Shown one piece after another: positions 33,467 to 60,751 of a stretch of DNA of 64,000 nt. Source of the DNA: Macrostomum hystrix (lineage: Eukaryota > Animalia > Platyhelminthes); NCBI GenBank assembly GCA_950097015.1, contig CATNEN010000001.1, forward strand, positions 10,664,001 to 10,728,000. Reading direction: 5' to 3'. The position numbers were made by a program, and so were the translations under genes. Numbering within the stretch: the stretch's first letter is position 1; every line of letters begins with the position of its first letter. A model generated the notes under the pieces. That model was given only the letters and a program-made list of their open reading frames with translations. It was not told where the DNA came from and searched no databases.

Positions 33467-36400
33467 AAGAGGATTACCTTACATTTGTAATATGAAAATT
33501 TATATTACAAATGTAATATGTAAAATGTAATAGGCTGGCGCCACTTCTTAGCCACTGACTTGCCACTGGCAGTATCGGTATCACAGAGATTACTCGCTCG
33601 CCATTCTCGCTTGGCACTGTTGCTCGCATTGCAGGTCCAGAGTATTTGTCAAACTCGACCCAGATGCAATCAGGATGACTCGGCGGTGCTCTTCCTGTAG
33701 CATAGGCAATCTCACAAACTGTCCCAACAGAACCATTCACCAGGCCGTTTTGAACCGACAGATTTCGTGTCAGCATCACACGTGCACCAATCGTCAGGTA
33801 TAGTCTTTTCGCCAGACAGGATCCTGAGCTCTCTCTTTCACCATTGCCAGCTGAATTCCTTGGCGGTTGTTTGCCTTTACAAATTGCATCAATGCGCCGC
33901 ACCGGATTTGTCACGCTTGCCATTGCGCCCAGCTGCCTGTAATTTGCATCTTCAACTACATCGTTCAGGTAGTACAAAAACGTGCAGCTTTCCTGGAAAC
34001 TTGACGGCATCAGCTCTTGGCACTTTTGCATCAACTGCCACACTTGGTCAGTGACATTGCCTTCTCGAAGCGATTCCAACATTCTGGCAAACTCAACATC
34101 ATCGGCCTGACGAGCTTGTCTGTGCAAATGTACTAACAGTTTTGAATTTCTGATACAAGCTGTAGCCAAATTGATTAAGATTGTTTCTCTCATTCGGTTT
34201 GTAATCAAACAGTTTTCCATCTTGAACAGGCGGCAATTGAAACACATCTCCAACGAGAATGATTGACAGTCCGCCAAAGTCTACATTTTCATTATTGACC
34301 TGCTTTGGAAACAAATCACACAGTCGGAGGTGAACATTTGCCAGCGTTCTTTTACCGACCATTGAAAACTCGTCAATAATTATGTAGCGAACTTTTGACC
34401 ACTGATTCTGCATTTCCATCCGTGCCTTGCTACTGCCTTGATTGTTACCTTGACCTCTACTGAACTTGACGTGCAGGCGCAGTGCTGAATGCAGCGTTTG
34501 CCCACCAATATTAAAAGCAGATACACCGGTTGGAGCCAATACTTTGCACCTGGATTCGCCAATCAGCTGCTTCACGGCTGCAATCAGAAAACTCTTGCCA
34601 GTTCCAGCACTACCGTAGAGAATCACTTTCAATGGAGCTGGCTTTGGCATGCCATCACTTTCCGCAATTTGAAGTTGTCGCCAGTGATTCTCAATAGTGT
34701 CGTACAATTTCCGTTGCTCGAGGTTCAACAAACTAACGTCGATTGGAGCTGCAGCGGCCTCATTGTCTGCCATTAGGTTCGCTGCTTCCAATTGTTGAGC
34801 TCCCACATTTGACTTGAATGCCGACATAAGAAACGTCTTTGCTTCTTGAACTGTCGGAAACCTGCCAGCCGGAGCAGACCAATCAAAATCTGACGGTGGA
34901 CTCGGAAGTCTCTCTTCTGCGCTTACTACATGCTGCAATTCTCGATGAGTTGCACCCATTGCAGCCATCCATTCATCCTGCTGATTGGCAGGAAAAGTCC
35001 GTGCAGCCACTGATTCGGCATTCGCTGTTGTCATTTCTGGCAACTCGTCAACAGCCGCTTGCTCTTCTTCATCTTCTTCATCGTTGCGCAGCTCGTCCAA
35101 ATCCCGCACCACCAACTCGCATTGATTCGCCGCCTCTGACCTGGCTTCGAATGCTTCTCGCCAGGTTGCGTGCGATCCCTTTGCCTGCTCTTCAGTGCGC
35201 CAGCAACTCCAAAGTAGTACTTGCTGTCGAAAATACTGCTCTCGTCGCTGGTCCGAAATTTCATTAGCACGCAGAAACGGACTCACAATTACAACTGCTT
35301 CTTTGCCTTGCACTCTCCGTTGTAGACTGCCTGATCGACTACCACTTTTTGGTGCCACCCAAGCATAGTCTGCAAAAAATCGGTACATTGTCACATTCTC
35401 CAGCTGCTTAGGTCGATTGCCATACTTGTCTAAACTGTTCTTGCATGTACCACGACGTTCCACGGCTCGTGTCTCGCCCGTCTGTACGTACACAAATTCG
35501 CGAGACGATTTATACATTGGCGTCTGTAGTAGCAAATGCATGGCCTCTTGAGCAGAATAGTCACGTGCTCCAACTTCCAACATAAGCTGCTGCTGAACAA
35601 TTCGTCTAGCCGTATTAGTTCGACGATACTCTGCTGTTCCATCTTGCTGCTGCTGCTGCTGCTCATCTCCTGTCAACAATCGTTTGCTGATAGCTTCCAA
35701 ATTCACAGACTGCTTTTCACCCTTGCTGGCATACTTGAGCAAATAGCGAATCAAGCTCTTGGCCGATGCTATAAACTGAATATCAACGTTGGCTCGCCAC
35801 ATGCATAGCAACTGGGGATTGTAGGAGCCCATCAGCTCGTCATTGCGTTGCGTCTCTACCAGCCAATTCAAACGCGACTTTTTCGTTGCCACAGTCCTTT
35901 CGCGCAGCTCTCGTGGATACTTGTATCGACACTCTTTCTTGTTGTTAACAGATCGAGTACACCGAGCGCTGCAAATTGTGTCTCGAACTCGCATGGGACA
36001 ATACTTGCAAATCAGCTTTATCGTCTTGAATTTCTCGCGGCTCCAATCGAGAAGGGTGGTCTTCAAACGTTACAGCATTGTTCATGATAGAATTTCCCGT
36101 TTCTGAACCATCTTTGCACATATTCCAACTGCAAATGTACTTGTCTACAAATGCCACAAGCTCTTCTGGCTGCAAATTAATTGACGTCACATCGACACTA
36201 TCTGGCATCCAAACACATCCGTGCACGTGTGGGCTTCCTCGACTCTGATACTCTACGCGAAACCAAAAGTCCTTCACTTTCCAATGCTCAACAAAAAAGC
36301 GTCCCAAAAACTCTTCAAACCGCAACCAAAACACAGTGTCCGCCATGCCTGGATCAGTCCGCAACAACTGTCATTTCTTCTCTAGACGGATCACGCGGCT

Positions 36401-38327
36401 CATTGTCATCTGAATCAGCAAACACATTCCAGGCATAACGCAACTCTGGCCAATGAATGTCTGCAGCTGATAATGTCACAAAAAAGTGCGGCAACCCCAG
36501 CGTCTGAATCATTGCTTCCAACTGGCGCCGTCTAGTCTGCCAATAGCTTGCTGTACCGCGAAGATCGGCTGCTCGTGCAGACACACTCGCCATCACCACG
36601 GGATCCTTCAGCTTCTCCAGCATCTCTTTTGCATCTAGTCCGGCCAAATTTTTGTCGTGCACAAATACACGTCCCATTTCAAGCGCTCTCCAACGCATCA
36701 CCATGTTCTCTAAATAAAACCGAAAACGCGGATCTCGACGAAATCTCGGACAATGGAACTGCATCAAATGCTTTGCATAATCTCCAAGGCTCATTGAATG
36801 AACTCGTCCCGGTGACTTGTAATCCCCTCTTCCATCTGGAAACAAATGCGGATATGCCAGACTGAACAATCCGTCCTGCTCAAACTCATTCACCGGTTCG
36901 CAACCAAGTGTTGGCCATTGCAACTTTTCTTTCAGCAGTCGATCTCGAACCTTTACTTCCAACTCACGTAATGGACTATCTAGCAAACTGCTCATCAGCC
37001 CGTCGCTAGCCTCTGCTTCTGCAGCATCCAAGTCAACTCCATCAGACGTTGCTTCTGCCGCTACCATAGACTCTACATCATTTAAATGACCATCATTCGG
37101 CAATCTATTCAATGCTTCGTCATCAATTCTGACACCGCCCTGTTGAAAGTACACATTGTTCTTAGTCAGATACCTGATGGCATTCAAAACTTTATCGCGA
37201 CGCACTCGAAGATTATTCATTCTTCCGCTTCTCGTTCTGCCAGACTCGTCATCGCTTTTTCCATCATACATTAAAACCACTGGCAAAGTTCGTCTTGGCA
37301 GTTCACGAACAACACTAGCTTGATCTTGAGGAAACATTATTCCATGTCCTCTACTTGCGTGCTGGCCTTGTGGAAACAATCGAAACACAACAATCACCGA
37401 CAGTACAGGCGAGATCAGCATCTGCTCGGCGACCGTCAAATCACGCAATTCTTCAGGCTGCTCAGACATTGGGTTCGCATCATTTTCATCGCTAAACAGA
37501 TTCGGTACATGCTTATCATTTCTGCACCGGTGGCACATTGTACGCGAATCAATTGAAAAATAGACACCGGGAAACTGTTCCTTACACATATCGCATCTTC
37601 TCAAATCCGTTATCTTTGTCTTGACATTATTGAAAAAATCACTGCGCATCTGCTTATACCGGTCACTGAATGGCGCACGAAGACATGCTGGCAGGCTTAG
37701 ATCACCAACTTCGTTAACTTCTTGCTGAACATCTTCCACTCCGCTGGATTCAACGTTATTAACAACTTCAACTTCAATTGGTTGCTCTGGTCCAAATGAT
37801 TGCCGCTTTCTAGGGGAAGCACGATTTGGCTCATCAGATGTCTCGTTTGTAGCACGAGCACGCTTTCGAGGCGACGACAACGGTGTGTTAGCATGCGATG
37901 ATTCCACGTGGCATTCTGCTTCTGATCGTTCTTCTCTAACTGCCCCGTCTGGCTGCTGCTGTTGTTCTATGTTTCTCGGCTGCTTTCTTGGCGATACTCG
38001 CACTTCAAATTCCTCCTGCTGCTGCTGCTGCTTTCTGCTGGTGCGTCTTTGCCTTTTCTGAATGTCTCCTCGCTTATCTGTCTGATGCTCACTCGCTTTA
38101 TCAGTAAGCTCATGTTGACTTTTAGTACATGGTTTATTTCTTTGTGAACGGCGTGCGCCACGGCTTTTACAAACCGGACCGGACCTATCGACACGGAATC
38201 AGCCATGTTTTGAAGGTTTCTAGGAGAAGCTAGAATAGACACACTACCATCACTGCTTGTGTGTTCGCTTAGTCGGCTGCTTCGACTATTAGAACAGCTG
38301 TGCAAATCACTCTGCCGACTCTTGGAT

Positions 38328-43209: not shown

Positions 43210-45575
43210 TGATGTGGAGTGTACTTCGGAATCGAGTGGGGTTGTGAGCCAGCCTAATTTTTCCAATTTTTAGCAAGTCAATAATCGCGACCCACATAGC
43301 AGCTGGCCGCAGAACACCATCATTAATCTTAGGGCCAGACATTGGGCGGAGGTGAATTAAGTAGCCGCCGATTCCCTTTGTCTCGGATCTGTCTAGTCCC
43401 CTGTAGGAGTGACTGATCGCGGAAATAGCAATACTGTATGGACTAGTTTAGGTCATAATTCCCCTCCAAGCCGCGATCAGATTGTCGGGATCACTCATGC
43501 GTTTAGAGTGAGCTTTAATTCTTCATGTCCCTCTTCTTTACTGTAACCCGAGCCGGGGCTCGATTATGACCTTTCCCCCTTTAGATACATGTAACGACAC
43601 TATAGGCAGGTCGGCGCCTGCGCTTCCCATATCCCGGCGGGATCACAATCATTGGCCGACTGCCGGCAGACGCTCCTAGTGGGGCATCTGGCGATTCTCG
43701 CCGCCGCTTCAGTGGGCAATTGGGGTGGCATAATGCCGACCCGATTCCTCGCTGACAGGCTGGCGAGCATGTGGGTTATTTTGATGAATGCGAGGTTGGC
43801 GGAGCTGCAGGACTATTTAAGAAAGCGCGCTGCGCTGCCCCTAGGACAACCTTTTTCCTTTTTCCGGGAGCCTTTCCCGGCGACCTACCTTTAACCTACC
43901 GAACTTCCCTTCTCACCTTTTTCCCTACCTGTCTGGTCCCGGAACACGGTCCGCGGACTCTCCCCCTGAAAAGCTAGAACTTAGCCCCTGAGCCTAAGGC
44001 TCCTGAGAATAGCCACAGGTAAATTACCTGCATAGCCCCTGAGCAGTTAAGCCACCTCTTTGGGTGAGCTCCAATTGAGCCGTGTGCTCCTGCGATTTGG
44101 TCCCTTGCCAATCGCACTAGGCACCCCCGTCCCTACTTCCTCTTTCAATTGCCTTTCCCAGCGAGACCAACGGCCTGCAGTCTGTCAACCAGCATCGCAG
44201 ATAAGTAACCCGCGTAGCGGACTTTTATTGCTATCCCTAAGGGATTTATTATCTAGCTAGTGGGCAATTGGGGCAAGGGCAGGGTTTTGATTCTAGCCTA
44301 ATAAACTATTATTCATCTTAGTCGCCAATCATTTAACTATTAGGCAATTTAGTAACAATTTAAATCACTTTCTATCATGCTGTTATTTCCCCTTTATTTT
44401 CTCATTGGACAGCCCTCAATCATGAGTGGCTAATTCACTAGGGGAATGGGCTCTGGCGAGGCCGAGCTGAAAGCTGCGGCAAGAAGGCTACTGTGAGCGC
44501 GCATGAGAGTAATATGGAGCTAGGGATTTGCGAGCTAAATGCGGGATGTAGCGTGTGCATTTCTGCCTACGAGGTGGGGGATTCCTTGGCCGGCTTTCCT
44601 CACTCTCTCGGCGGGTTCCAGTGTATGCGTCAAGTTCCTTTGCCAATTTGAATTCTCCCTCTTTTCCCCGCCTTTCGCAACCGCGGCCATGGGAGCGAGA
44701 GGCGTGATCTAATAATTTCCTGCTTGCATAATCACTCAGCCAGTGTTCAGCTTAATCTCTCCTGCCTCTGTTCTCCTCAACTCACACAGAATCGGCTTGC
44801 TAGTTATCTAATGAGTAGGCTGCAGTCTAATGTACGGAATGTGTCTAATGTCTCATGAGTAGGATTCTGGCTATGGATTTCTCATTCGGGTTCGGAGTAC
44901 CACCTTTCTAGACCACTGTAGCGCAGTTTCAGGAATCCCCTTGTGAGGCGTGACTCGATCCATTCTGGGGTTCTCACCCTAGTCTAAAACGGAAGTTACA
45001 GAATGCTCTATTTTTCGGCTTGTCTAAGATCTGTGTGACAAACTGGGAGCTGCGAGCTCCGGGGACCCAAGTTCCCAAATGTCTGCGGTGGCAACGTAGG
45101 CGCATTGGGTGGTGGCGCTACCTTCGATCATTATCCGCTTTGCCGATAGCCTTTCCGCATTTCTAAGACAAGAGTCTAGGCCGAGTCGACCACTGCTACC
45201 AAAGTTAGGAGTCAGTTACGAACATGCTACTGATGACAGTAGGCTATCTAGCCCTGTCCTATTCGCTTGCGGGTAGTCCGACATCTATTTAGACTTTTAG
45301 CCGGTTTCGAGCACTGCTTGGGGTGGGCACGGCAGTCATGCCTGTGGCCTATGGGTTGGGTGGGACTGGCCAGCCTGAGGCCAATAGGACCACTCACTTG
45401 CATCCTTTGTACCGCCTCATCTCTCCCTTCATCTCTCCCTTCATCCCTCCCTTCGTCATCCCTCTCTGCGACAACTCGCGGCAGCAGCGATCGACCTCCG
45501 ACTCTATCGTCGTTTTCCACACTCCTATCTTTCATGAGGGCGGTCATCGGCTAGCAAAAGACCCGCACTATTTCA
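43210..45575 (+). repeat. 5' LTR of element 2 (2366 bp)
   Basis: TGATGT...ATTTCA ends, PBS 1 nt downstream; TATA-like TATTTAAG 43814, AATAAA 44300. Confidence 0.95.
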
Positions 45576-45576
45576 A

Positions 45577-45594
45577 TGGTGGCAGCGGTGGGAT
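45577..45594 (+). promoter_or_regulatory. Primer binding site, tRNA-Leu
   Basis: TGGTGGCAGCGGTGGGAT is the reverse complement of ATCCCACCGCTGCCACCA, the 3' end of tRNA-Leu(AAG/TAG type) as recalled. Confidence 0.9.
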
Positions 45595-46914
45595 CTAGAA
45601 AGGGCGCGAAACGAACCTGAATTTTTCAATTGTTAGTTTAGCGCCGCAGATTTCTGTGGTAGTTAGCCGTAAGGGCTTCTTCTAGATTTCATCTTCCGTA
45701 CGCCTAAATCTTATCTCTAGAGACTGGACTTCAGTTCGAGTAACTGTCAATTAATTTTCTTTGAACAGTTTCAATTTGATTCGGACTTTAATGTAAGGAT
45801 TTTGTTAGGATTTCCAAAATTTCTGATTAGTGACTTTCTACTAAGAGTAGGCTGTGTGAGCGGACTTCATGCTAGAGTGTCTTCGGGTTATGTGGCTGCT
45901 GCAGGAGTCAGGGACTGTCTGTGGGGTTTCCCGCGTGACTGTTCTGGGAGGGGCCAATCTTAACGAAGGACCGGACCATGCCGGTCAGGCCTCCTAACCG
46001 AGCGAAGTGAGCCCCCGGCAATGCAGCCGGGAACCGATGACGAAGTCCGCGGACATCGCTGAGCACCGGGGGTTGGTTCTCTTGGGCAGCTTGCAGGCCT
46101 GCTTACGTGTACCTGATTCTGAAAGTGTCACATAGCTTTGATCAAGTCTGACTTTGGTGGGGAACAGTTAGGGAGGTGGGACCTTCTGGGAGGTCTAGCG
46201 ACACCCGTGCCCGCCTCTCGAAGCTGCCTACTTTAAGTATGGGCTAGAATTCGGTCGGCGCGTCTTTCTAAGAAACTCTCTGAGGGATGGTCTAAACGGA
46301 GAAACCGGGCTCTAAGCCACGGACCCCTAACCGAGCGAGGTCTCAGATGTATAATTCCTGGGATCCCCAGCCTCGTAAATCGCGGAGGCGAAGCCCCCGG
46401 CCATCCCAACCGGGAAGGGCCCTCTGAGCGAATCGGGGATTAGCCTTCTTTGAATGACTTTTTGAGTCGCGTACTTTCCAAGGTAGGGAGATAGGCTGCT
46501 GCAGGCGCAAGCTTGCAGTAGTACTGGCCCCGCCGTACCTATAGTGTAACAGTCCGCTATAGGGTTGCAGAACGAGTGCTAAGTTAAAACCTAGACTTCT
46601 ATGTCCCAAACTTAAGTGCGCGCAAACAGTTGACAGTAGCCAAGGCTGGAAGCAAAGCTAGCCAGGGCCCTGGGCCCTTTTTCTCTCTCACTGATCTCTG
46701 ATCATTTTTGCGGTAGGGTTGCTCTCTAGGAGTAGGGAATTCGCCGCATTATCAATTAGGGCTGGATTTGACAGCTCAGGCTCATTTTCTTTCCCCCCCG
46801 CACGATCTCCAGTCGTGATCTGTTTTTCCTTTTCCTCCCCTCCCCCATTGTTGCATTAGCGACAGACCCCCCTCTTTTTCATTCGCAAAACCCTCATTCC
46901 TCTTTTGGCCGAAA

Positions 46915-49900
46915 ATGTCCGACCAGGAGGATGAGGTCGTCGAGGTGATCGGCGCCCCCCGTCCAACCAAAAGTAGGGCTGCCTCCGCAGAAAGGTGCCA
47001 GGAAAGGCGCCCCCTGCCTGCAACTGCAGCCCCGGGTACCCCTAGAACGGACCCGTGGGAGGTCCATCGCTGCCTTCTCGAAATGCTGCAGTCCGTAAGG
47101 TCCGACTTGCAATCGCTTAACGGCCCGGTGCACTCCCCGGTGTTGCGGCACTCGGTGGCCACCCAGACGGAAGGTGAACGGCCGCAGGCGGTCAGGCCGG
47201 CGTGTGGTTTCCGAATCCCGGTAGAGCCATTCGACCAAGGTCGCTCCGACATTGCCTCTTGGATGCTTCGACTGGAGGCAAAGTTTCAACTTGAGGAGGT
47301 CACCGACGATAGGGCCAGGAATGTGACCTGTTACAGCCTGTTGCCGGAAGAGATGCAGTTAGAAAGTCTCCTGACGGTTGACTTTGATGGCCCCTTTCAG
47401 CAGTTCCGGGCCAGGTTGCTAGACGGCTGTCTGGATTCCAGGTTGCCGGTAACTAAGAGGCGCACGGTAGAGCGACTGCAACCACGTCCGGGGGAGGCTC
47501 CCGAGGTGTTCTTAGTGCGGCTGAGGAAGCTCGTGGAGTGGGCTTATGCTGACTATCCAGAGGACTGGCGGCAGAACGAGCTCAAACAGCTCTATCTACA
47601 GAACGGCCACTTCGATTCCAAATTCGCTTTTGAAGCATTCTTGGCGAGAGACTGGACCCCGGAGGGCACGGTGTTTGAGCAGCGGAGGTCCGAGGAGGCT
47701 GACCACGTCGCGCACGAGATTGAAAGCGAGCAACTAAGTTCAGCCTCCGAGGACGCTTCGCTGTATCAGAGCTGTGCGTCCCCAGTGGGCAGCCCTCCTC
47801 GAGCCGCGGTCAGGGCGGTAGAGGCGGCAGACGAAGCTGGCCCCGCAGAATTCCGAAATGGAGTGGAGAAGGTGGGAGTCGGATCCCAACTAACGGCTGA
47901 ACAAGAAAGGCAGCTGGGAGACTTGTTGCGGGCCAACGCCGACCTGTTCGCCGACCAGGAGGAGGACCTGACGGTCACGACAGTGGTCCAGCATGAGATC
48001 ACGCTGACCGACCCTCGGCCCGTGAAGTCGGCGCCGCGGAGGATTCCTCAGGCCTACCTCGAGGAGGTGCAGCAGATGGCCAGGGAGTGGTTGGAGGCAG
48101 GGAAGGCCAGTCACTCGGCCAGTCCTTACTGCTCGCCGCTGGTGCTGGTGAAAAAGAAGGACGGCTCCCTCCGCGTCTGCATTGACTATAGGGAGCTCAA
48201 CGAGCGGAGTGTGTCAGAGGTCACACCGCTGCCGCGCATCGACGAACTGCTGGCATCGTTGCATGGGTCCTCCTATTTCACCACCCTGGATCTCCGCAGC
48301 GGGTACCACCAAGTGCCTATGCATGAAACTTGCAAACCATACACCGCATTCGCCGTCCCGGGAGTCGGGTTACTGCAGTGGAATGTGATGCCATTCGGGC
48401 TGAAGGGCGCACCAAGCACGTTCTCTCGTTTGATGAACCTGGTGCTGGCAGGCGTGCCGCAGCATGAGGCCATGGCGTACATCGACGACGTCATCGTGCA
48501 CTCTGCTACCTTCGAGGAACACCTAGTCCGGCTCCAGAAGACATTCGACCGTCTGCGGGCGGCTAACCTGAAGATGAAGCCGTCCAAGTGCTTCCTTGCA
48601 CAGCCCGAGATCTCTTTCCTAGGGCACGCGGTGTCGGGAGCGGGCATCGCGACGGACCCTCATAAGACATGTGCGCTGTCCACGTGGCCACGACCGCGTA
48701 CAGCCACCGACGTCCGCTCATTTTTAGGCGCGGTGGGCTACTACCGTGATTTCGTGCCGGAGTACAGCTGCCTCTCGGCGCCTCTTTGCGAACTCACCAA
48801 AAAGGGCCTTGTGGATGTGGAGCCCCTCTGGGACGACCGGCACGAGACCGCGTTCGAAGAACTGAAGGCGCGGATGGTCGAGGCGCCCGTGCTGGCCCAC
48901 CCAAGTTTCGAGAAGGGCGCAGGGCGTTTCATACTCGACTGTGACGCCAGCCTGGAGTCCTTGGGGGCGGTGTTGAGCCAAGAACAGCCGGACGGGACGG
49001 AGAGGGTCTTGGCCTATGGCAGTAAGGCATTGTCCGCATCTCAGCGGAACTATTGCGTCACAAAACTAGAAATGCTGAGCCTCGTGTACTTCACCAGGAA
49101 GTACAGGTATTACCTACTGGGCCGCCGGTTCCTGGTCCGAACCGACCACAGCTCCCTCCAGTGGCTGAGGAGCTTTAAGGAGCCAACTGGCATGTATGCT
49201 CGGTGGGTGCAGCACCTGTCGCTATACGACTTCGACCTGGAGTATAGGAAGGGCAGCCTCCATACCAACGCCGACGCATTGAGTCGCCGGCCTAGACAGA
49301 GACACGGAGATTGCCCCGTTTGCCGGCCGTTGGAGCCCGGCAGTGAGGAAGAGAGTGAGGACGAAGGCGTGGTGGTAAACGCCGTCGCGGCGCAGGCAGT
49401 CATGGAACCGCCGCTGCAGCCCGAGGAATTGCTGGCCCAGCAGGTCGCCGACCCGGTGATCCATTGGATACTGCAAGCTAAGGTCAACGGTTTGGCCGCC
49501 CCAGACCCGGCCGCGGTCCCGGAGTTGACCGCCAAGCAGAAGGTCGCTTTGAAGAAGCTGTTGCCCTACTGGGACCTCTTGAGGGTGGAGGAGCAGCTGC
49601 TCAAAATCCAGGTGCACGCTCCCCCCCGGCCGCCGCTGTGGCTGCTCCCAGCAAGCCTCGACGAACAGGCTTTTCACTCGTGCCATAACGGGAGCTTAGC
49701 CGGGCATTTCGGGCGTCAAAAGACCCTGGCGCGTGTCGCCCAGTGGTTTTGGCGACCAGGACTCCGCGCTTCGATGCAGAAGCTGTGCGCGCAGTGCCAC
49801 GCCTGCCTGTGCAGCAAGAAGGGCCGCAGAGCTCAGGCTCCGCCGCAGCCATGGGAGAAAAGCCCGAAGTTCTCACGGATCCACCTAGACTTTGTCGGCC

Positions 49901-51057
49901 CCCTCGGTCGCGGCGGTCAGAGCATCCTCACGATCGTGGATAGCTACTCCGGCTGGGTCGAGGCGTTTCCTGTGGCCAACCAAACCGCTAAGGCAGTCAC
50001 GAGGATCCTGTCCACAGAGTTCATCCCACGGTTCGGGGTGCCCGATTGGATCCACAGTGACCAGGGCGCTCAATTCGAATCGAGCCATTTCCGCGACTTT
50101 TGTCGGAAGCTGGGCATTCGAAAGACCAGGACCACGCCCTACCACCCACAAGGCAACGGCATGGCGGAATCCCAGCACCGCACCCTGAAGGCGCTGTTGA
50201 CAACGGCCGTGGGCCGACACCACGAGAAGTGGAAGGCTCACCTGGGCGCTTGCCTTGCCGCCATGAGGTCCGCCGAACACTCCTTGACCGGATTTTCACC
50301 TTTCTTCTTGGTGTATGGGCAGGAAGCCCGGCTGCCCGTAGACGTGGCACTGGCCGCGCCGGCCGAAGCACCTGCGCCCCATCATTACGCGGAGCAGCTC
50401 TTGCAGAACCTGGAGGAGGCTCAAGTGCAGCTGCAGGAGCAATTTAACCAGAAGCTCCAGGCGCAGGCCCGAATGGGGGACAGGCAACGAAAGACGGAGC
50501 TCGAGGTAGGGGCCGTTGTGTACCTGGCCCGCCATCAGATCGAAGGCTGGGAGATTCCCAAATTTCACCAGGCCTACTCGGGACCATGGAAGGTGGTCGC
50601 GAAGCCGGGCGTGTCGATTTACGACGTCGCGCCGGTGACCCCGCAGCCCGGCCGACAACAGACGTACCGGGTGCACCGCGACAACTTGCGAGCTGTTCCC
50701 AAGGAGGCCGGGGAAGTCCGACCAACCCAGGAGGCGGGCGAGAGGCAACCAAGGCAGGTGCAGCGTGGGCCCGGGCGGCCGCCCGTGAGGCCCAGGCCAG
50801 CCTCACCCCCGCCGAGGATGTTGAGGGCGGAAAGCGAGTCCGAGGACCAGTGGAGCGACGGCTCCGACTCCGAGGAAAGCTGGTTGGGCCCCGAGGAACC
50901 GCCGCCGCAAAGAGTGGACGAGGGTCCGCGAGTGTTGAGGCCCCGGAATGGCATCCGACCCCCCGAGCGCTGGGGCTATGTCCGGAGGATTCTCCTCGGT
51001 GAACCCGAGTCCGACCCGGAGTCCTGGGCGAGGACCAACGGCCACGACCCGGGCTAG
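46915..51057 (+). CDS. Single Gag(capsid)-RT-RNase H-integrase polyprotein, no protease or CCHC motif
   Basis: Capsid-like LQPRPGEAPEVFLVRLRKLVEWAY; RT CIDYRELN and YIDD; RNase H ILDCDAS and RTDHSSL; integrase HHCC, HLDFVGP, HSDQG, AES; no D[ST]G-type protease motif between capsid and RT. Confidence 0.95.
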   Translation: MSDQEDEVVEVIGAPRPTKSRAASAERCQERRPLPATAAPGTPRTDPWEVHRCLLEMLQSVRSDLQSLNGPVHSPVLRHSVATQTEGERPQAVRPACGFRIPVEPFDQGRSDIASWMLRLEAKFQLEEVTDDRARNVTCYSLLPEEMQLESLLTVDFDGPFQQFRARLLDGCLDSRLPVTKRRTVERLQPRPGEAPEVFLVRLRKLVEWAYADYPEDWRQNELKQLYLQNGHFDSKFAFEAFLARDWTPEGTVFEQRRSEEADHVAHEIESEQLSSASEDASLYQSCASPVGSPPRAAVRAVEAADEAGPAEFRNGVEKVGVGSQLTAEQERQLGDLLRANADLFADQEEDLTVTTVVQHEITLTDPRPVKSAPRRIPQAYLEEVQQMAREWLEAGKASHSASPYCSPLVLVKKKDGSLRVCIDYRELNERSVSEVTPLPRIDELLASLHGSSYFTTLDLRSGYHQVPMHETCKPYTAFAVPGVGLLQWNVMPFGLKGAPSTFSRLMNLVLAGVPQHEAMAYIDDVIVHSATFEEHLVRLQKTFDRLRAANLKMKPSKCFLAQPEISFLGHAVSGAGIATDPHKTCALSTWPRPRTATDVRSFLGAVGYYRDFVPEYSCLSAPLCELTKKGLVDVEPLWDDRHETAFEELKARMVEAPVLAHPSFEKGAGRFILDCDASLESLGAVLSQEQPDGTERVLAYGSKALSASQRNYCVTKLEMLSLVYFTRKYRYYLLGRRFLVRTDHSSLQWLRSFKEPTGMYARWVQHLSLYDFDLEYRKGSLHTNADALSRRPRQRHGDCPVCRPLEPGSEEESEDEGVVVNAVAAQAVMEPPLQPEELLAQQVADPVIHWILQAKVNGLAAPDPAAVPELTAKQKVALKKLLPYWDLLRVEEQLLKIQVHAPPRPPLWLLPASLDEQAFHSCHNGSLAGHFGRQKTLARVAQWFWRPGLRASMQKLCAQCHACLCSKKGRRAQAPPQPWEKSPKFSRIHLDFVGPLGRGGQSILTIVDSYSGWVEAFPVANQTAKAVTRILSTEFIPRFGVPDWIHSDQGAQFESSHFRDFCRKLGIRKTRTTPYHPQGNGMAESQHRTLKALLTTAVGRHHEKWKAHLGACLAAMRSAEHSLTGFSPFFLVYGQEARLPVDVALAAPAEAPAPHHYAEQLLQNLEEAQVQLQEQFNQKLQAQARMGDRQRKTELEVGAVVYLARHQIEGWEIPKFHQAYSGPWKVVAKPGVSIYDVAPVTPQPGRQQTYRVHRDNLRAVPKEAGEVRPTQEAGERQPRQVQRGPGRPPVRPRPASPPPRMLRAESESEDQWSDGSDSEESWLGPEEPPPQRVDEGPRVLRPRNGIRPPERWGYVRRILLGEPESDPESWARTNGHDPG

Positions 51058-52423
51058 GGAGAAGTAGTTTCCACTGCGGGCGCCCCAGAGCGCTCACTCG
51101 GCCGTGCTAGGCGACCAAGCCCCACTGGAATTTCGTGGCAAAGCCCCCGCCCTTCCGTTACTTCTCCCCTTTAGTAAAATGCGCACTCTGCACTTTTTGC
51201 TCCTTTTCTCCTATTGTGCACGCCTTCCTTTTTCATCAAAGCCGCCTTGGCACAAAAATCTCATAAAAATTCTTATAATTTAGCCAGAAACCCAAAAACA
51301 TACCTAGTGGGGTGAAATTCCCCTAGTACTTTTTCGCATGAGATGCCTATCTAATTGTAGCAATCTAGGGCATGCACCTTCTTTTCTCAAAGAGCATTTT
51401 ACTTTTATTCGCACCACATCATGCATGGCACCTTTGCCTTATCTTGCTTCATATTGGTGGGTCTGTGGGAGTTCAATTTAGGACAACTTCTAACTTAGGA
51501 GGGGCACCAACCCGCTAAAGTGAGCGGGGTGGTATGCCATGGGAAATTCTATGTTTCTTTAAGGGAGGGAAGGCGGTTTCAAATCAAAAAGGCCATCTCG
51601 GCGCCAAACCCTCTTAAAAACTCATATAAACTAATCAAAATCCAAAAACATACTTAGTGGGGTGAAACTCCCCTAGTACGAATTTTCGCATGAAATATTT
51701 TCGTAATAACTGCCGCAAACTAGGGTTCGCACCTACTTTTCGCAAACTTGCTTATCTTACATGTTCTCTATGCTTGGTTTCGGGAGTTTAGCTATACCGG
51801 CTTCTATTTAGGGGGTATACCAACCCGCTAAAGTGAGCGGGGTGGTATGTTTCGGGAATTTTCTTCTTAATGTTTGTTTAAAGAGTGGGCGGTCGTAAAT
51901 CAAGAGGCCGGTAGGATCAGGTATTCGAACTCTAGGGGGAAAACAATCTGGCTGTTTCAATGAACGACAGATTTTAAAAATGATAACTTTTCCTTTGTTA
52001 GGATTAGGAGGGTCAGAAAAAAACCTTATTTGGGAGCCAGAAGTTAGCAGTTGGGCATTCAAATCTAGGTGCCTGGAGGGGTAGAATAGTAATAAATCGT
52101 ATGAATTAAGGTTCCAGACGTTTTAAAAACTCATTAACAGTCTATCAGTTAGTTTTTTCGGTTACTAGGCGGTTGTAAAACTTGAGCAGTAATGTTTCGT
52201 CTAGGAAAGAAGACGGGTGAAAATAGTGAGCCCTCTTTCATATTTCAAATGGTGGCGTAAAAGAAAAGGAGCCAGGGATTTTTGCATGTTTATTTCGTTA
52301 TGCATAGAAAGTTCATTTAGCACCAGTCGTGGTATATGAGTCTGTGTGGGTGCGGAGGCTGATCATGTGCTGATAGGTGGGCCGGGGCGTCGTAGGAGTG
52401 AAGGTGGCGCGACTGGGTGGCTC

Positions 52424-53056
52424 TCACAGAAAGTACGAGATGAAGCCCAGAACAAGGGCCACGGCGATCATGGCGACTGCCAGAGCTGCGCCTAGTGGGC
52501 CCCGGATAAAGCCGGGGGCTATCGCGGCCACGTCCTCCTCGCGGCCTTCGGGCACGTTAATGTCTGGAGGGGTAAGGTGGATGAGTAGCTTAGTAAACGG
52601 GCAGCGATGGTTCGTAGGGGGAAGTCGCAAATAGTGGAACCCAAGTTGGGTGGGAGAGCATGACAGAAAAAAACATCTAACTTACTCATCACGAATGATA
52701 AGGCAATGGGATCGCCTGAGCTGGCCCGGCGCCGAGGCGGATTTAAAAATCCGGGCAGGTAATCGCTGGAAATGGAAGGAGGGTGTGGCCAGATTAGGCG
52801 GGGACAAAATAGTATTGACAATTGCAATCCAAATAACTCAATTTAATCAATCTTTGGCTGGGGAAGGGTTTTTCCCTTATTGGGTCGGGGTCAATTTCAG
52901 ATTTTTGGGGATCAGTAGGCGTGCCGTGGGTAAGGGGGATTTCGTTATTCTAATTCTTATGCAATAACCCTCGCAATAATCCTTAAATAACCGGCCTTGG
53001 GGGGGCCGAGTAGAAGTAATAACTCACCTTTCGTCTCCAGGTTGCTGCTGGGCCAT
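52424..53056 (-). CDS. Antisense three-exon accessory gene, 82-aa protein with a C-terminal transmembrane helix. Exons 53056-53028, 52765-52686, 52563-52424
   Basis: ACCACAATGG start; donors AG|GTGAGT and A|GTAAGT; acceptors CCTTCCATTTCCAG and CCTTACCCCTCCAG; 29+80+140=249 nt in frame; TATAAAAG at 53213-53206; AATAAA at 52294-52289. Predicted only. Confidence 0.72.
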
Positions 53057-53989
53057 TGTGGTTTCGGACGAACGAGTATGATAGCGGTAGCTTATGTTTA
53101 GGCACTTCGGTAGCTTATGATAATGCACTTCGAAAGAAGAGACTGGATTGCGGTGAAATTTTCAAGAGATAACAGGCTTGAGGTTAATGGGGCGTCAAGA
53201 GTTTGCTTTTATAGGGCTAATTTAGGGAGACGTGGCGGTCTAACCGCCAGCCAATGGGAGCAAAGTGGGGATTCCGGGCAGAACCAGTTTAGGGGGCCCA
53301 TAGTAACGGTTTAGTTGTTGGGGCCCTGACCTTTTCGGTGAGGAGACACCTCGGCCGGCAACAGCATCACAAGCGGCCTGAGCAGCGGTTTCCCCAGCTG
53401 CGACCAGCTGCAGCGCCGATTGGGCCGCGCGCAACGGCTAGGCAATCGGCCCGGCGAACATTCCCGGGCACGGCCAGCCGGAAACATCTGGAGCGCGCGG
53501 CGAATCAGAGGCTACCAACGCCCGGCAACAGGATCGGTGAGGACGCAGAGCGGGTCAGCCAATCTGGAGCCACCTGGTGAGAGCACGGCCGGACCCTCGG
53601 ACTTAAGGAGGAAAACGGCCGGAGCGTCCCAGGATTGCGCAACCGCGACCAAGCCGGGCAGGGAAAGACGGGGACAGCTGCAGCCACCTGGAGGAGAAGG
53701 CGAATCGGGACACGGCACCCCGGGACAGCGAGAACAACTCTAACTCAGCCGGAATGCGCACCCACCTCCCCTCAGGACTCTATCCCTTAGTTGCTAGGGG
53801 CGCCGACCTTTACACTCTCGCACACAATCTATTTATAGCAGTATTGTTACGTACGATGACCTAGGATTTCTTCTCTAGCGGATTTCTTCTTAAGGTTCTT
53901 TACGGTATACAGTAGGGTAATGTAAGTTTTTGCCCCCTCGATTCGCGGCACACCCCACTACTGACAGTAAGCACGTAAGTGCCTTACGT

Positions 53990-54009
53990 GAAAGTGAGCG
54001 AAGGCGGTG
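53990..54009 (+). promoter_or_regulatory. Imperfect polypurine tract of element 2
   Basis: GAAAGTGAGCGAAGGCGGTG immediately before the 3' LTR. Confidence 0.65.
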
Positions 54010-56347
54010 TGATGTGGAGTGTACTTCGGAATCGAGTGGGGTTGTGAGCCAGCCTAATTTTTCCAATTTTTAGCAAGTCAATAATCGCGACCCACATAGC
54101 AGCTGGCCGCAGAACACCATCATTAATCTTAGGGCCAGACATTGGGCGGAGGTGAATTAAGTAGCCGCCGATTCCCTTTGTCTCGGATCTGTCTAGTCCC
54201 CTGTAGGAGTGACTGATCGCGGAAATAGCAATACTGTATGGACTAGTTTAGGTCATAATTCCCCTCCAAGCCGCGATCAGATTGTCGGGATCACTCATGC
54301 GTTTAGAGTGAGCTTTAATTCTTCATGTCCCTCTTCTTTACTGTAACCCGAGCCGGGGCTCGATTATGACCTTTCCCCCTTTAGATACATGTAACGACAC
54401 TATAGGCAGGTCGGCGCCTGCGCTTCCCATATCCCGGCGGGATCACAATCATTGGCCGACTGCCGGCAGACGCTCCTAGTGGGGCATCTGGCGATTCTCG
54501 CCGCCGCTTCAGTGGGCAATTGGGGTGGCATAATGCCGACCCGATTCCTCGCTGACAGGCTGGCGAGCATGTGGGTTATTTTGATGAATGCGAGGTTGGC
54601 GGAGCTGCAGGACTATTTAAGAAAGCGCGCTGCGCTGCCCCTAGGACAACCTTTTTCCTTTTTCCGGGAGCCTTTCCCGGCGACCTACCTTTAACCTACC
54701 GAACTTCCCTTCTCACCTTTTTCCCTACCTGTCTGGTCCCGGAACACGGTCCGCGGACTCTCCCCCTGAAAAGCTAGAACTTAGCCCCTGAGCCTAAGGC
54801 TCCTGAGAATAGCCACAGGTAAATTACCTGCATAGCCCCTGAGCAGTTAAGCCACCTCTTTGGGTGAGCTCCAATTGAGCCGTGTGCTCCTGCGATTTGG
54901 TCCCTTGCCAATCGCACTAGGCACCCCCGTCCCTACTTCCTCTTTCAATTGCCTTTCCCAGCGAGACCAACGGCCTGCAGTCTGTCAACCAGCATCGCAG
55001 ATAAGTAACCCGCGTAGCGGACTTTTATTGCTATCCCTAAGGGATTTATTATCTAGCTAGTGGGCAATTGGGGCAAGGGCAGGGTTTTGATTCTAGCCTA
55101 ATAAACTATTATTCATCTTAGTCGCCAATCATTTAACTATTAGGCAATTTAGTAACAATTTAAATCACTTTCTATCATGCTGTTATTTCCCCTTTATTTT
55201 CTCATTGGACAGCCCTCAATCATGAGTGGCTAATTCACTAGGGGAATGGGCTCTGGCGAGGCCGAGCTGAAAGCTGCGGCAAGAAGGCTACTGTGAGCGC
55301 GCATGAGAGTAATATGGAGCTAGGAATTTGCGAGCTAAATGCGGGATGTAGCGTGTGCATTTCTGCCTACGAGGTGGGGGATTCCTTGGCCGGCTTTCCT
55401 CACTCTCTCGGCGGGTTCCAGTGTATGCGTCAAGTTCCTTTGCCAATTTGAATTCTCCCTCTTTTCCCCGCCTTTCGCAACCGCGGCCATGGGAGCGAGA
55501 GGCGTGATCTAATAATTTCCTGCTTGCATAATCACTCAGCCAGTGTTCAGCTTAATCTCTCCTGCCTCTGTTCTCCTCAACTCACACAGAATCGGCTTGC
55601 TAGTTATCTAATGAGTAGGCTGCAGTCTAATGTACGGAATGTGTCTAATGTCTCATGAGTAGGATTCTGGCTATGGATTTCTCATTCGGGTTCGGAGTAC
55701 CACCTTTCTAGACCACTGTAGCGCAGTTTCAGGAATCCCCTTGTGAGGCGTGACTCGATCCATTCTGGGGTTCTCACCCTAGTCTAAAACGGAAGTTACA
55801 GAATGCTCTATTTTTCGGCTTGTCTAAGATCTGTGTGACAAACTGGGAGCTGCGAGCTCCGGGGACCCAAGTTCCCAAATGTCTGCGGTGGCAACGTAGG
55901 CGCATTGGGTGGTGGCGCTACCTTCGATCATTATCCGCTTTGCCGATAGCCTTTCCGCATTTCTAAGACAAGAGTCTAGGCCGAGTCGACCACTGCTACC
56001 AAAGTTAGGAGTCAGTTACGAACATGCTACTGATGACAGTAGGCTATCTAGCCCTGTCCTATTCGCTTGCGGGTAGTCCGACATCTATTTAGACTTTTAG
56101 CCGGTTTCGAGCACTGCTTGGGGTGGGCACGGCAGTCATGCCTGTGGCCTATGGGTTGGGTGGGACTGGCCAGCCTGAGGCCAATAGGACCACTCACTTG
56201 CATCCTTTGTACCGCCTCATCTCTCCCTTCATCTCTCCCTTCATCCCTCCCTTCGTCATCCCTCTCTGCGACAACTCGCGGCAGCAGCGATCGACCTCCG
56301 ACTCTATCGTCGTTTTCCACACTCCTATCTTTCATGAGGGCGGTCAT
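54010..56347 (+). repeat. 3' LTR of element 2, truncated by 28 bp
   Basis: Matches 43210-45547, then diverges abruptly after CGGTCAT. Confidence 0.95.
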
Positions 56348-56389
56348 TCTATGAAAATAGAATAAAAGCAGGATATAAAAAACGCAAAC

Positions 56390-59300
56390 GACTGGCTGCA
56401 ACGAGCTAACTGCTGATCCTCCTGACCCGAGGACCTTGACACAGCGGGATCAGTCGCTCGCAGGCAGGACTGGCTGCAACGAGCCAGCGACTTCTCCCCT
56501 GTTTCCGAGAACTCCTCAACAGCAGGATTCGGTGTCTGCAGGCAGGACTGGCTGCGACGAGCGGACACTTCCTCCTCTGTCTCCGGACACACCAGAGGTT
56601 CCGGATCTGGCGCCTGCAGGCAGGACTGGCTGCAACGAGCGGGCACCTTCTCCTTCACCTCTGAGCCTTCCGCCACCACCTGAGTTTGCACCTGTGCCTT
56701 GGCATCACAGCCCCGCACCCAGTGCTCCTCCCTTGTGGCTCCCTGGCTCCAGCTACCTTCAGTAGCTACCGTCTGCACGGCGGCATCCACAGTCTGCAGG
56801 CAGAACTGGCTGCAACGAGCTGACTGCGGGGCCCCGTTGACAGGTGCTTCCCGCCTCACAGGCTGGCCTGCGGTCGTGTCTTCCTGACACCCTTGCAGCA
56901 CCGCCTTGTCTTGGCGCACCTTGACAGGCTCCAGGACCGGCTCTTTCACCAGTCCCTCAGACACAGCTGCTTCCCATCCTGGTCGGCCGTCAACGACATC
57001 TTGAGCCTTGGGTTTCACAGCTCGCAGTGGCTCTGCGGCTTCGTTGACTTCAACCTGTTTATTGTCCCCTTCCTGTCCCTCCTCCAGCTGACTCGAAAAT
57101 TGGCGGGTGCAAGCACTCGCACCGAACTGGTTGTGGGGTGTCACCACCCCAAAAGAACAATTCACCGGATTATCCGGCTTTCTCGACATCGAGTCAGCAT
57201 TTTGGTGAGACTTTCCAGGACGATGAACAATGGTGAAGTCAAACTCACTCATTCTCTCAACCCAACGGCCTAAGATGCCTGTCGCCTCGGTCTGATGCAT
57301 GAGCCACAGCAGGGCCTTGTGATCGGACCGGACAACAAACTTCTTGCCAACCAGGAAGTACCGGAAATGCCGCATCGAATCTACGACTGCCAGCAACTCT
57401 TTGCGGGTCGTAGTGTAGCGGGTCTCCGGCCCTCGCAGCTTCCGGCTGTAGTAGCCAACAGGCCTTTCTACTCCATCAGACTGCAGCTGATTCAAACAAG
57501 CCCCTATGCGGTCATCAGAGGCATCTGTGTCCAGGACGAAAGTCACCTTCGGGTCAGAGGTGTACTCCGGGTACGCCAGTACCTCCGTTGAGCACAACGC
57601 ATCCTTCAATCCCTGAAAGGCTCTCTCATGCTCTGTCTTCCACAGACCCTTCAAGCTGGTAACGTCCCGCTTAGTGAGCTCGTGCAATGGTGCTGCAATC
57701 CCTGAGTAATTGCGGACGAACTTCTTGTAGTACTGTGCCAACCCCAAGAAGCTGCGCAATTCTTTGGCGCTTCGAGGTGTCGGCCAGCCTCTGAGCTCGG
57801 CGATCTTATCCTCGTTCGTCAGGATGCCTTCTGGTGTCACCACATGGCCTAAGTAGTGCAGCTCCCTCTTGAACAGGTGGCACTTCTTCGGCTTCAGCTT
57901 GAACTGGGCTTCACGGATTCGAGTCAGCATCATCCTCAGATGCTCCAAATGGTCGTCAAAGGTAGGCGAGTGGACGAGTATATCATCGATATACCCCAGC
58001 GCCACCTTTGGCGTCAGCCCCTCCAGCAGCTTGTTGATGCAGCGCTGAAAGGACCCTGCCGAATCCGTCATGCCCATCGGCAACACAGTAAACTCAAATT
58101 GACCTCCGTGGTGAACCGAGAACGCGGTCAGGTGTCTATCCTGCTCTCTTAGCGGGATCTGCCAGAAACCCTGTGCAAGATCGAGGGCGGAATAGTATTG
58201 CGCCCCTCTCAAATGCTCAAAGGTCTGCTGTATGTCTGGCAGCGGATAGACGTGCTTCAGGCAGCGGCTATTCAACTCGCGATAGTCTAAGACAATCCTG
58301 ATAGTCTTGTCTTTCTTAGGGACAATCAGGAGAGGCGTGTTGTAACTGGAGAATGTCGGCTTGATGATGCCTTTCGCCAACATCTCATCCAGCATCTTGT
58401 CCAACTGTTCCATCAAGTGAGGCGGGATCCTCCTCGGTGGAATGCGAACTGGAGTGGGATCTGTCACAATGATCTCGTGAGTGACTAAGTCAGTGACACC
58501 ATGGTCCAGGGGATGCATTGCGAATGCCTCGCGGCACTCTCTCAACATCTCCTTAACCCGATGCCTCTGCTCCTCGGTCAACCTCTCACAGATCTCCACC
58601 TCATCTAGCCATGCCCCATCGCTCTCCAGCCCTTCTGCCTGAACCTGCCTGACCGGCGTCTCCTCTAGCTCTGGTAGATATTCGAGTTCGTCGGCCTTCA
58701 GTGGCCTCGCTAGCCCTACAAGACCATTGCGTCGAATGACCGCCGGGAAGCAAGAGGTATTGATGACTTCAACACACCCTGTTCCGTCAGCCATCGTCAG
58801 CAATGTCGGGGCCATCTCGACCTGAGACGCCCCTGGCTTCAGTCCTGACCTCAAGGACTCAACAAGCAGCGGCGTGCCGTGACAGTCAGTCCGGCCACCC
58901 GCTAGCTTCACCGCTACGAGCATCGAAGAGCGCGCTGGCACAGTGGTCTGCTCGAGTGAGTAAACCCGACTGGCCCTCGCCTCTCGCCTCGTGAACCTCA
59001 GCGGCACTTTCGTTCCAGACTTCGTGGTCAGCATCCCCTTTGGAAAGTCAATCTTCTGGGTGTGCTGGCGGATGAAATTAATTCCTAGGATGTTCTCGTG
59101 CTCGCCCTTCGTCACGCAGAACTCGACGTCTACAGCGTAGTCGCCGAGCCTGACCTCAAAGGCGACTCGCCCTAAAACCGGCAATCGAGAACCATCAAAG
59201 TTGCACAGGGCACTCTCTCCTGTCAGCACAGCGTGCGGCACTACATGCCGCAGAGATGCCCACGTCTCACTTCCAATCAGACAGCGCCTGCTCCCTGAGT

Positions 59301-59502
59301 CTAGGAGAAAAGGCACCGTCTTCTTAGAAACCATCGCCGTCACATAGGGGTCAGCGTTGGAGGCATACCAACGCTCGAGGAAGCTGGTGCTAGGAGAGCC
59401 CCTACCCTCTCCTCCAGCTGACTCCTCAGTCTCCCTCAGGCCCGTCCAGGAACTGGACTGCGAGGGGCACTGCCGTCCGTGCTCCTCGCCGTCCCGTTTC
59501 CC
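56390..59502 (-). CDS. pol: Pol of element 3 (protease, RT, RNase H, repetitive linker), truncated
   Basis: FLLDSGS, VLDYRELN, YIDD, VLDTDAS, RSDHKAL; the frame runs on through filler to a stop at 56344. Confidence 0.93.
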
Positions 59503-60713
59503 GACGTCTGAGTGCCTTGGGCCTGCAGCTCGGACTGCTGCCTGGGCTCTTGCCGTTGCTCTCTCGGGTACCCCTGAGTGTGGTGCTCGAAACGCGGCTT
59601 GGGTGGCCTCGTCGGGCAATCACGCCTCAGGTGTCCGAACTTCCCGCAACCAAAGCATGCCCCTCTTGGCGGCGCCGGTCCTTCCTGCTGCACGGCTCCT
59701 TGTGGTCGGCTGAGCGCCTGGACCAGCATCTCCTGCATCTTCTGCTGATGCTGCAGCTGTTGACCCTGGACCTCGACCATCTTGGTCATCAGCGATTCGA
59801 GTCCCTTCAGCGCAGCGGTAACACCTTGCGGTGGCGGCCGCGCATTCAGGTCCCCATCCTCGCCGTGTACCATCCGAGCCGGCCCATCCTTCGCCCTCTG
59901 GACTGCCTCGTCGACCACCTCTAGGCGCTTTAACTCTCGCCTAGCTTCCAGGAGTGTCCTAGGGCGAGTCCGCAGCAGGTGCTTGCGGTTCTCAACCGAA
60001 GTCCGAACTCCCTTAATAAACTGGTCGACCAACTCATAGTCCAGGTCTCTCTGGCGAAGGTTGGTATAGGCCTGCTCACCGAGTCCCTGCAACGCATCAG
60101 CATAGTCATCAAGCGTTTCCGCTTTCTTCTGATAGCGGTTGCGGAACTCGTCTCGGTACTCCTCAGGACTGCTCAGCTGCGCGAATCGCTCCACAATACG
60201 CTCCTTGAATTGGGCATACGTGAGCTCTTCGGGCAGCCTCATCCTGAGGACGGCATTCAGGCACTGTACATCGAGGTGGTCGAGTAGAAGGGCCTTGCGT
60301 GTCTCCGAACTGCGAATCGCAGCCCGGGCGCAATACGCTTCAAACGCCTCCACCCACAGATGTACGTCCTGACCCCGAGAAAACTTGGCAATCTTCGCCG
60401 TCCTACCTTGTTGTTGTTCCACCTGCTTCTCCATCAGGTTGAGCATCCGGTACACCAGGTCAGCCGTCGCCCTGTCGTCCAGCCTCGGTCGTCGTCGCCT
60501 TGCTGCCGCCGCCGCTCCTCGGTCGTCCTCGCCGCCGGACTGGTCGTCGTCGCCGAAGTCGCTCTCGCTGTCCTCGCCGTCGCCGACGCAGCCGTTTCCG
60601 CGGTCATACCATCTTGACCGAGCTTCCTGCAGCGCACAGCCACCGCGAGACTCCTTGCTCCGGGCTACCTGCTGCCTCTCCTCCCTCTCAGAATCCAATT
60701 CCTCTTGGGACAT
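59436..60713 (-). CDS. gag: Gag of element 3 (capsid plus one CCHC knuckle)
   Basis: FRNRYQKKAETLDDYADAL capsid motif (similar to element 1 Gag); CFGCGKFGHLRRDC. Confidence 0.94.
   Translation of the reverse strand: MSQEELDSEREERQQVARSKESRGGCALQEARSRWYDRGNGCVGDGEDSESDFGDDDQSGGEDDRGAAAAARRRRPRLDDRATADLVYRMLNLMEKQVEQQQGRTAKIAKFSRGQDVHLWVEAFEAYCARAAIRSSETRKALLLDHLDVQCLNAVLRMRLPEELTYAQFKERIVERFAQLSSPEEYRDEFRNRYQKKAETLDDYADALQGLGEQAYTNLRQRDLDYELVDQFIKGVRTSVENRKHLLRTRPRTLLEARRELKRLEVVDEAVQRAKDGPARMVHGEDGDLNARPPPQGVTAALKGLESLMTKMVEVQGQQLQHQQKMQEMLVQALSRPQGAVQQEGPAPPRGACFGCGKFGHLRRDCPTRPPKPRFEHHTQGYPREQRQEPRQQSELQAQGTQTSGNGTARSTDGSAPRSPVPGRA
59460..59502 (-). promoter_or_regulatory. -1 ribosomal frameshift signal (element 3)
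   Basis: G GGA AAC (59502-59496) in gag frame, 6-nt spacer, stem GCGAGGAGCAC/GTGCCCCTCGC (10 of 11 pairs). Confidence 0.87.
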
Positions 60714-60751
60714 GGCGTTCGTTTCCGCAGTGAATGAGTAAAAAGGCTAAC

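Follow-up and report, generated by a model that had tools for sequence, protein, structure and literature searches.

A predicted spliced gene lies on the minus strand of a young Ty3/Gypsy retrotransposon, between integrase and the 3' LTR, and runs opposite to gag-pol. It is predicted to encode a short single-pass membrane protein of 82 or 98 amino acids with one predicted helix. Judged from its predicted frame and its conservation in diverged copies of the family, this antisense gene is very probably real and coding. By analogy with small membrane proteins of other Gypsy elements, we give a probability of about 0.4 to the reading that the predicted protein helps envelope-less particles to reach and cross a cell membrane. 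If the gene is taken as real, the chance of such a transfer role rises a little and still falls short of even.

A young Ty3/Gypsy element lacking protease and envelope genes

The element lies in the second half of the window, by which we mean the whole 64,000-nt stretch of DNA that was analysed. Its main features are:

43210..45575, plus strand: 5' LTR of about 2366 nt, TG...CA, found by self-BLAST, its end inferred from the CA before the primer-binding site
45577..45594, plus strand: primer-binding-site-like 18-mer, seen in the sequence
46915..51057, plus strand: single gag-pol ORF with a diverged capsid-like region, RT, RNase H and integrase, and with no protease and no CCHC knuckle
54010..56347, plus strand: 3' LTR, missing about 28 nt at its junction with an older Gypsy element on the minus strand

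These are hallmarks of Ty3/Gypsy elements (two LTRs, a primer-binding site and the order RT-RNaseH-integrase), and the 18-mer presumably matches a tRNA-Leu 3' end. The LTR copies beginning at 43210 and 54010 differ at 1 position in 2338 nt, so the element is young, as an earlier note on this DNA had described it. The end of the 3' LTR, and with it the site of any target-site duplication, is lost at the junction with the older Gypsy. That older element (56344-60746, minus strand) carries gag, protease, RT and RNase H and is cut before integrase, at a point that coincides exactly with the end of the shortened 3' LTR; the junction is likely to be a deletion that followed insertion. The window's third Gypsy element (3700-8513, plus strand) is inserted in a 13-nt satellite; its gag-pol includes a protease and looks intact, and no spliced gene model was found after its pol. 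Elsewhere in the window, minus-strand ORFs at 33474-38198 resemble by their motifs what we take to be a Helitron Rep/PIF1-helicase gene, and glycine-rich ORF pieces at 18702-20055 (minus strand) presumably resemble the glycine-rich domain of ALK/LTK.

An HMM built from 62 homologous protease segments found no aspartic protease in the six-frame pieces of the young element, and it did match both of the other Gypsy elements in the window (E 4e-25 and 1e-18). The gag-pol ORF contains no D[ST]G motif, Pfam finds no protease in it, and the element has no env gene. The lack of protease and zinc knuckle had escaped the earlier note. The stretch from the capsid end to the RT linker (47513-47825) is covered without a gap by a contig about 90% alike, so this lack is likely to be common to the family rather than a fresh deletion. 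No report of an animal Gypsy without protease was found in the literature covered, which consisted mostly of open papers. In gag-pol, V-x-A-V motifs occur ahead of RT, at residue 331, and in the stretch from RNase H to integrase, at residue 853; they resemble those at the equivalent places in the protease-bearing neighbour elements. The protease-less polyprotein may be cut in trans at these V-x-A-V sites, for which we infer a role in cleavage.

In RT-RNaseH the element shares about 50% identity with its nearest database relatives; those with names are mostly from invertebrate animals, which makes an invertebrate host likely. In a quick tree of 56 of 122 rows the element forms a long branch, without support, among invertebrate-type Gypsy elements. 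The gag region gave no convincing relative, one search yielding a single match built of 20 short stretches and another none, and it weakly matches a neighbouring gag (E 3e-4). Outside the coding region, several joint variants are seen among family copies at 45929-46458, in the 1.3-kb leader with its internal repeats. Diverged direct repeats, 75% alike and covered by other family copies, lie at 51238-51391, 51589-51746 and about 51810-51860; they are a possible cis-acting RNA element.

A predicted gene on the opposite strand

The gene model consists of the following features:

53165..53255, minus strand: putative antisense promoter, with a reversed CCAAT at 53251-53255 and TATAAAAG (TATA box) at 53213-53206
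53028..53056, minus strand: coding exon 1 (29 nt), with its ATG at 53056
52766..53027, minus strand: intron 1, 262 nt, phase 2, GT-AG, its acceptor in place in diverged copies
52686..52765, minus strand: coding exon 2, 80 nt, seen in the sequence and in diverged copies
52564..52685, minus strand: intron 2, 122 nt, phase 1, GT-AG, with conserved islands ending at donor +7 and acceptor -33
52424..52563, minus strand: coding exon 3 (137 coding nt), with a predicted membrane helix at about residues 60-78 or 60-82 and the stop of the 82-aa model
52289..52294, minus strand: AATAAA, poly(A) signal of the three-exon model, seen in the sequence

The earlier note had proposed this layout from the letters alone, and it held at every coordinate. 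The TATA box and the well-placed ATG (A at -3, G at +4) are both in the sequence, and the two introns have compatible phases that give a spliced frame open over 82 codons to a TGA stop at 52426-52424. The AATAAA at 52294 lies 130 nt past that stop, as predicted. A CCAAT box claimed near 53251 is present, but it is reversed and reads ATTGG on the gene's strand. The promoter block at 53165-53225 is matched in other family copies too. Splice sites were ranked with an approximate weight matrix over the minus strand of 51057-54010. Donors 1 and 2 ranked 1st and 8th among 134 GT dinucleotides and acceptors 1 and 2 ranked 1st and 3rd among 165 AG dinucleotides. Reading through intron 1 leads to a stop inside donor 1. 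GC content is 56-64% in the exons and 45-49% in the introns, and GC3 is 0.67 in the small gene versus 0.75 in pol.

The expected C-terminal hydrophobic helix was recovered, with a best 19-residue Kyte-Doolittle mean of 2.71 from residue 60 of the 82-aa model. It is preceded by 59 residues, of which residue 2 is Ala, and by a hydrophobic patch; it contains three small-xxx-small motifs, and Tyr80 lies just past it. When exon 3 was folded as a single sequence, one helix resulted, which adds little. The features of a retroviral-type env (large glycoprotein, signal peptide, furin site, cysteines) were not found in this protein of 82-98 aa, whose 82-aa model has no Cys, in agreement with the earlier note.

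Block-wise dinucleotide shuffles yielded any three-exon model in 4 of 1000 cases and a model with a hydrophobic helix in 0 of 1000, at thresholds chosen post hoc just under the observed scores, so that significance is overstated. The same model scan found none on the plus strand and none in six control stretches of the window. It is scarcely probable that these motifs came together by chance in a non-coding 3' internal region. That explanation would fit the post hoc thresholds and the lack of a database homologue, but not the absence of helix-bearing models from the shuffles or the four conserved islands whose ends fall on minus-strand splice signals.

Homologues were sought with exon 3 as the query (45 aa), and none was found among 959 longer candidates and 1 of near length, a weak search for a query so short. 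Pfam gave only SCIMP on the helix, below threshold (E 0.43), and an exact DNA pattern search of viral contigs gave 0 matches. Related metagenome loci numbered 15, with pol identity of 26-44%; a spliced membrane-gene model downstream of pol was found in none of the 8 loci scanned, 5 of which hold less than 2.2 kb there.

Exons and splice signals in diverged family copies

We compared the window with contigs of four public runs (X1-X4) from one study, possibly the window's own source. Diverged contigs were compared at 80% likeness, and 32 of 95 pieces were seen. Among these 32, diverged copies match the window mostly as islands over exons and splice signals, which are likely to be under coding and splicing constraint. 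Exon 1 and its donor are covered by an island at 52986-53054 in all four runs, and the listed indels (52985, 52999 and 53017) are all intronic. Exon 2 is covered without gaps by 52679-52738 (a piece in X1, with matching loose ends in X2-X4) and by 52706-52768 (X4), which together take in both of its splice sites. An island at 52527-52596, again in 4/4 runs, spans the branch region, the acceptor and the start of exon 3 with 8 differences and no gaps, and another at 52153-52216 (3/4 runs) covers a candidate fourth exon and its acceptor at 52201. Four islands stop 3 to 33 nt inside an intron, namely at donor 2 +7, acceptor 1 -3, acceptor 2 -33 (a branch-point-like site) and acceptor 3 -16. In one variant intron 1 aligns too (52838-53004/53029; 16 differences and 10-11 gaps; X3 and X4), as it does at 52901-52973 in X1; these pieces were excluded from the tally of island ends. 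The persistence of splice sites and frame in diverged relatives, which the earlier note had suggested checking, thus takes the form of these islands and gap-free exons, and upholds its view of an antisense, spliced coding gene belonging to the element.

Beyond 52527 there are 30 loose letters, of which 20 match the window and 10 differ, with no gap and no stop. In this single stretch, hand-read in the predicted frame and assumed to adjoin 52527, four codons are changed synonymously and three residues are altered (A/V, P/S, G/S); differences fall at 7/10 third positions versus 3/20 others (Fisher p=0.005). In the antiparallel plus-strand frame 3/7 changed codons are synonymous too. Since that frame also absorbs some changes, the coding strand is set by the splice signals and not by the codon test. 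Diverged contigs beyond 52527 are unlike the window, so that the helix itself lies outside the compared islands. In one copy only 10/30 letters of exon 2 are alike, yet the acceptor CAG is at the same distance and there is no stop. In three cases a joint that changes the 5' UTR picks up the window's sequence again at the ATG (53056, 53057 and 53060). The ATG at 53056 is missing from one diverged type, whose frame stays open further upstream, so that the N-terminus varies. Near-identical copies show 2 non-synonymous exon changes (P/L, L/V), 1 synonymous and 6 non-coding changes, too few to read.

Judged from contig joints, some members of the family lack the small gene and some lack gag-pol. 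A joint from 52196 to 52945 is present in 4/4 runs, so copies without exons 2-3 exist, a point absent from the earlier note, and a 6-nt direct repeat stands at both ends of the 748-nt part that these copies lack. Contigs in 3/4 runs join across the whole of gag-pol (46947/46965 to 51034/51178), pointing to non-autonomous derivatives with long LTRs. Among the joints listed, none falls at the predicted splice junctions, which has no bearing on expression. Contig depth is 1-25 over exons 2-3, lower than the 80-300 over flanking non-coding sequence and similar to the 10-25 over pol; depth is not copy number, and no weight is placed on it. In X3 one exon-3 island is joined to the element's own 3' region at 52150, so this relative, at least, is part of an element.

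These observations bear on whether a host gene was captured backwards with its introns and rides as a passenger, the islands then reflecting the host gene or past constraint. An antisense capture would preserve introns, and the direct repeat around a part that some copies lack is consistent with one. We consider this origin quite unlikely, since it sits poorly with several diverged versions, one of them joined to element sequence, and with the lack of a host-like homologue in the 959 + 1 candidates or Pfam, weak searches though these were with a 45-aa query.

Three or four exons

Two further features bear on the C-terminus:

52201..52427, minus strand: possible intron 3, 227 nt, phase 2, with a weak donor and a strong acceptor
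52149..52200, minus strand: possible coding exon 4 (98-aa model), encoding a short tail with 3 basic residues, in the island 52153-52216

The TGA stop of the 82-aa model lies within a phase-2 GT-GAG donor motif (52427). The earlier note had mentioned an extra donor at this position that could alter the last residues. The motif is present, but its consequence was underrated, as joining it to the conserved acceptor at 52201 would add 16 residues and give a 98-aa protein with a short basic tail. A branch-like site at 52230 goes with this acceptor, which ranks 4th of 165 AG and finds a match among the diverged contigs of three of the four runs. The donor scores 3.1 versus 6.0 and 12.0 for the other donors. 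Use of exon 4 places the AATAAA at 52294 inside an intron, the next canonical signal being at 51409, 740 nt past exon 4, and the downstream portion of the island falls in sequence common to many copies. The odds that the fourth exon is used, alone or as an alternative form, are in our estimate just under even. A 169-aa model through acceptor 52073, in frame, was kept only as minor, with indels in deeper contigs and an end in a block recurring nearby. The acceptor, a good one in phase with donor 52427, precedes an 87-codon basic, proline-rich open frame (51808-52072, minus strand) that shows indels in other copies.

The 82-aa form would be a tail anchor, so use of exon 4 would decide the type of protein. 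The earlier description of the product as tail-anchored may fit three exons (0-4 residues after the helix) but not the use of exon 4 (16-20 residues). Likewise, the reported lack of a polybasic tail after the helix is true of the 82-aa form, with 0 K/R within 15 residues, and borderline for 98 aa, with 1 or 3 depending on the helix end chosen. The 98-aa model has a net charge of -2 before the helix and +1 to +3 after it. By the positive-inside rule, a charge step of this type favours an N-out/C-in topology. Charge bias in the predicted sequence thus favours N-out/C-in for the 98-aa version, and only with exon 4.

An 82-aa tail anchor with a cytosolic N-terminus could instead do an intracellular job, as an assembly tether at the ER or an organelle or by blunting host defence. 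The position of AATAAA past the stop suits a three-exon end, the helix with its small-xxx-small motifs is at the extreme C-terminus, rapid protein divergence beside fixed splice sites suits host conflict, and hallmarks of FAST proteins are absent. We regard an accessory gene of this kind, the chief alternative to a transfer role, as somewhat unlikely: the stop lies within a donor motif whose downstream acceptor is conserved, and the protein has no likeness to such families beyond the sub-threshold SCIMP match.

Relation to known accessory genes of LTR elements

Antisense ORFs between pol and the 3' LTR (aORF-3R) are described in the available text of three papers for maize Grande (gene23), rice RIRE2, Retand (TRP28) and Botrytis Boty (brtn) (PMC7264820, PMC11963269, PMC8365987), and an internal promoter of its own has been demonstrated for Grande gene23 (PMC7264820, PMC11963269). 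The accessible part of one of these papers urges attention to antisense and spliced transcripts (PMC7264820). The small gene is antisense to gag-pol, lies between pol and the 3' LTR and is kept among family copies, although gene-less copies also exist; it is a member of this loose class. As far as those texts go, it resembles the aORF-3R genes in place, orientation, retention across copies and the lack of a homologue outside elements, and also in having its own internal promoter, which was shown for Grande and is putative here (TATA and a reversed CCAAT). It differs in that those described there are from plants and fungi and are mostly nuclear or DNA-binding, whereas here we have a small membrane protein of a likely animal element with 2-3 introns. 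What is already known, then, is antisense extra genes at this position in plants and fungi; what would be new is a multi-intron gene for a membrane protein in a likely animal element. In a literature search over the main text of mostly open papers, no animal Gypsy came up that carries an antisense gene of several introns for a membrane protein. The portions available of a paper on flatworm LTR elements (10.1101/2024.12.18.629116) and of PMC13524379 held nothing on antisense genes.

Non-coding antisense transcripts of LTR elements are also known, as for micropia in the available part of PMC7264820. An antisense transcript that functions as RNA, by self-silencing or as a decoy, with the frame incidental, is very unlikely here: the predicted transcript has no overlap with pol, and the third-position bias and gap-free exons favour coding.

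Forward-encoded sORF2/FAST-like proteins occur in MDG1-group and other insect Gypsy elements, and according to the available sections of their description, sORF2 brings envelope-less capsids to cell contact in Drosophila follicle cells (10.1101/2025.03.14.642691). There they are 63-107 aa long with an ectodomain of about 30 aa and a juxtamembrane polybasic patch, and some of their genes are downstream of pol; all 105 candidates are forward, have no promoter of their own and were selected by a myristoylation motif, which 2/6 Drosophila sORF2 also lack (10.1101/2025.03.14.642691). Within the limits of that text, our protein shares an envelope-less Gypsy, one helix, a length within 63-107 aa and a Tyr right past the helix, and with exon 4 it would likely share a predicted N-out/C-in topology. 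In contrast to the forward sORF2 genes, the small gene is antisense and spliced; its product lacks an MGxxxS/T motif, and 59 residues precede its helix where sORF2 proteins have about 30. Under the criteria in the available part of that paper the small protein falls outside sORF2/FAST, its polybasic patch being absent or borderline; by analogy it may nevertheless work like one.

Other animal and viral cases, each compared on the available parts of its source, are more distant in design. Oikopleura Tor3b/4b express env under an internal promoter, Penv (PMC4402516), and so offer a membrane-protein gene at an internal promoter (putative here) in an animal LTR element, but their env is sense, unspliced and a large cysteine-rich furin-cleaved glycoprotein. 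HIV-1 ASP likewise belongs to an LTR retroelement and is encoded in antisense as a hydrophobic membrane protein whose function is open, but it overlaps env, has about 190 aa and two helices and is driven by the 3' LTR (PMC10186651). ORF3 of bdelloid rotifers represents non-env TM ORFs after pol in invertebrate Gypsy-type elements, but has 220-230 aa, two helices and spliced messages, and none is described as antisense in the text available (PMC5408684).

A possible role in particle transfer

The transfer reading would rest on the antisense layout, the open spliced frame, the hydrophobic helix and the exon and splice-site islands in diverged copies. Antisense introns are not removed from sense genomic RNA and hence survive reverse transcription. 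The putative TATA promoter would drive the gene separately from the LTR, uncoupling the two. The protein would act in trans, as suggested by the existence both of contigs joining across gag-pol and of contigs joining across the small gene. By analogy with sORF2, it might then dock capsids at the plasma membrane or prime local cell-cell fusion. We favour this role because the size, the single helix, Tyr80, the hydrophobic patch before the helix and the charge step of the 98-aa form resemble sORF2/FAST, and there is no env. A bolder version is unlikely: that an animal Gypsy lineage without protease, knuckle or envelope spreads by an independently evolved micro-fusogen, encoded backwards under its own promoter in several exons, with alternative splicing to switch it between a tail-anchored and an N-out form, and with rapid diversification between subfamilies under host conflict.

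Implications

The family that carries the small gene stays mobile without a protease of its own. Screens for factors of envelope-free transfer work from translated forward ORFs that are unspliced and have a myristoylation motif. The small gene is invisible to such screens and to repeat annotation because it runs backwards and is split into pieces of 29, 80 and 137 nt. If it is a transfer factor, it would be a second recruitment of small membrane proteins by Gypsy elements, with another gene design, and many seemingly empty pol-to-LTR regions in animals would need to be re-read. Even with an intracellular job, it would widen the set of antisense accessory genes known from plants and fungi to include a membrane protein of an element that is likely to be animal.
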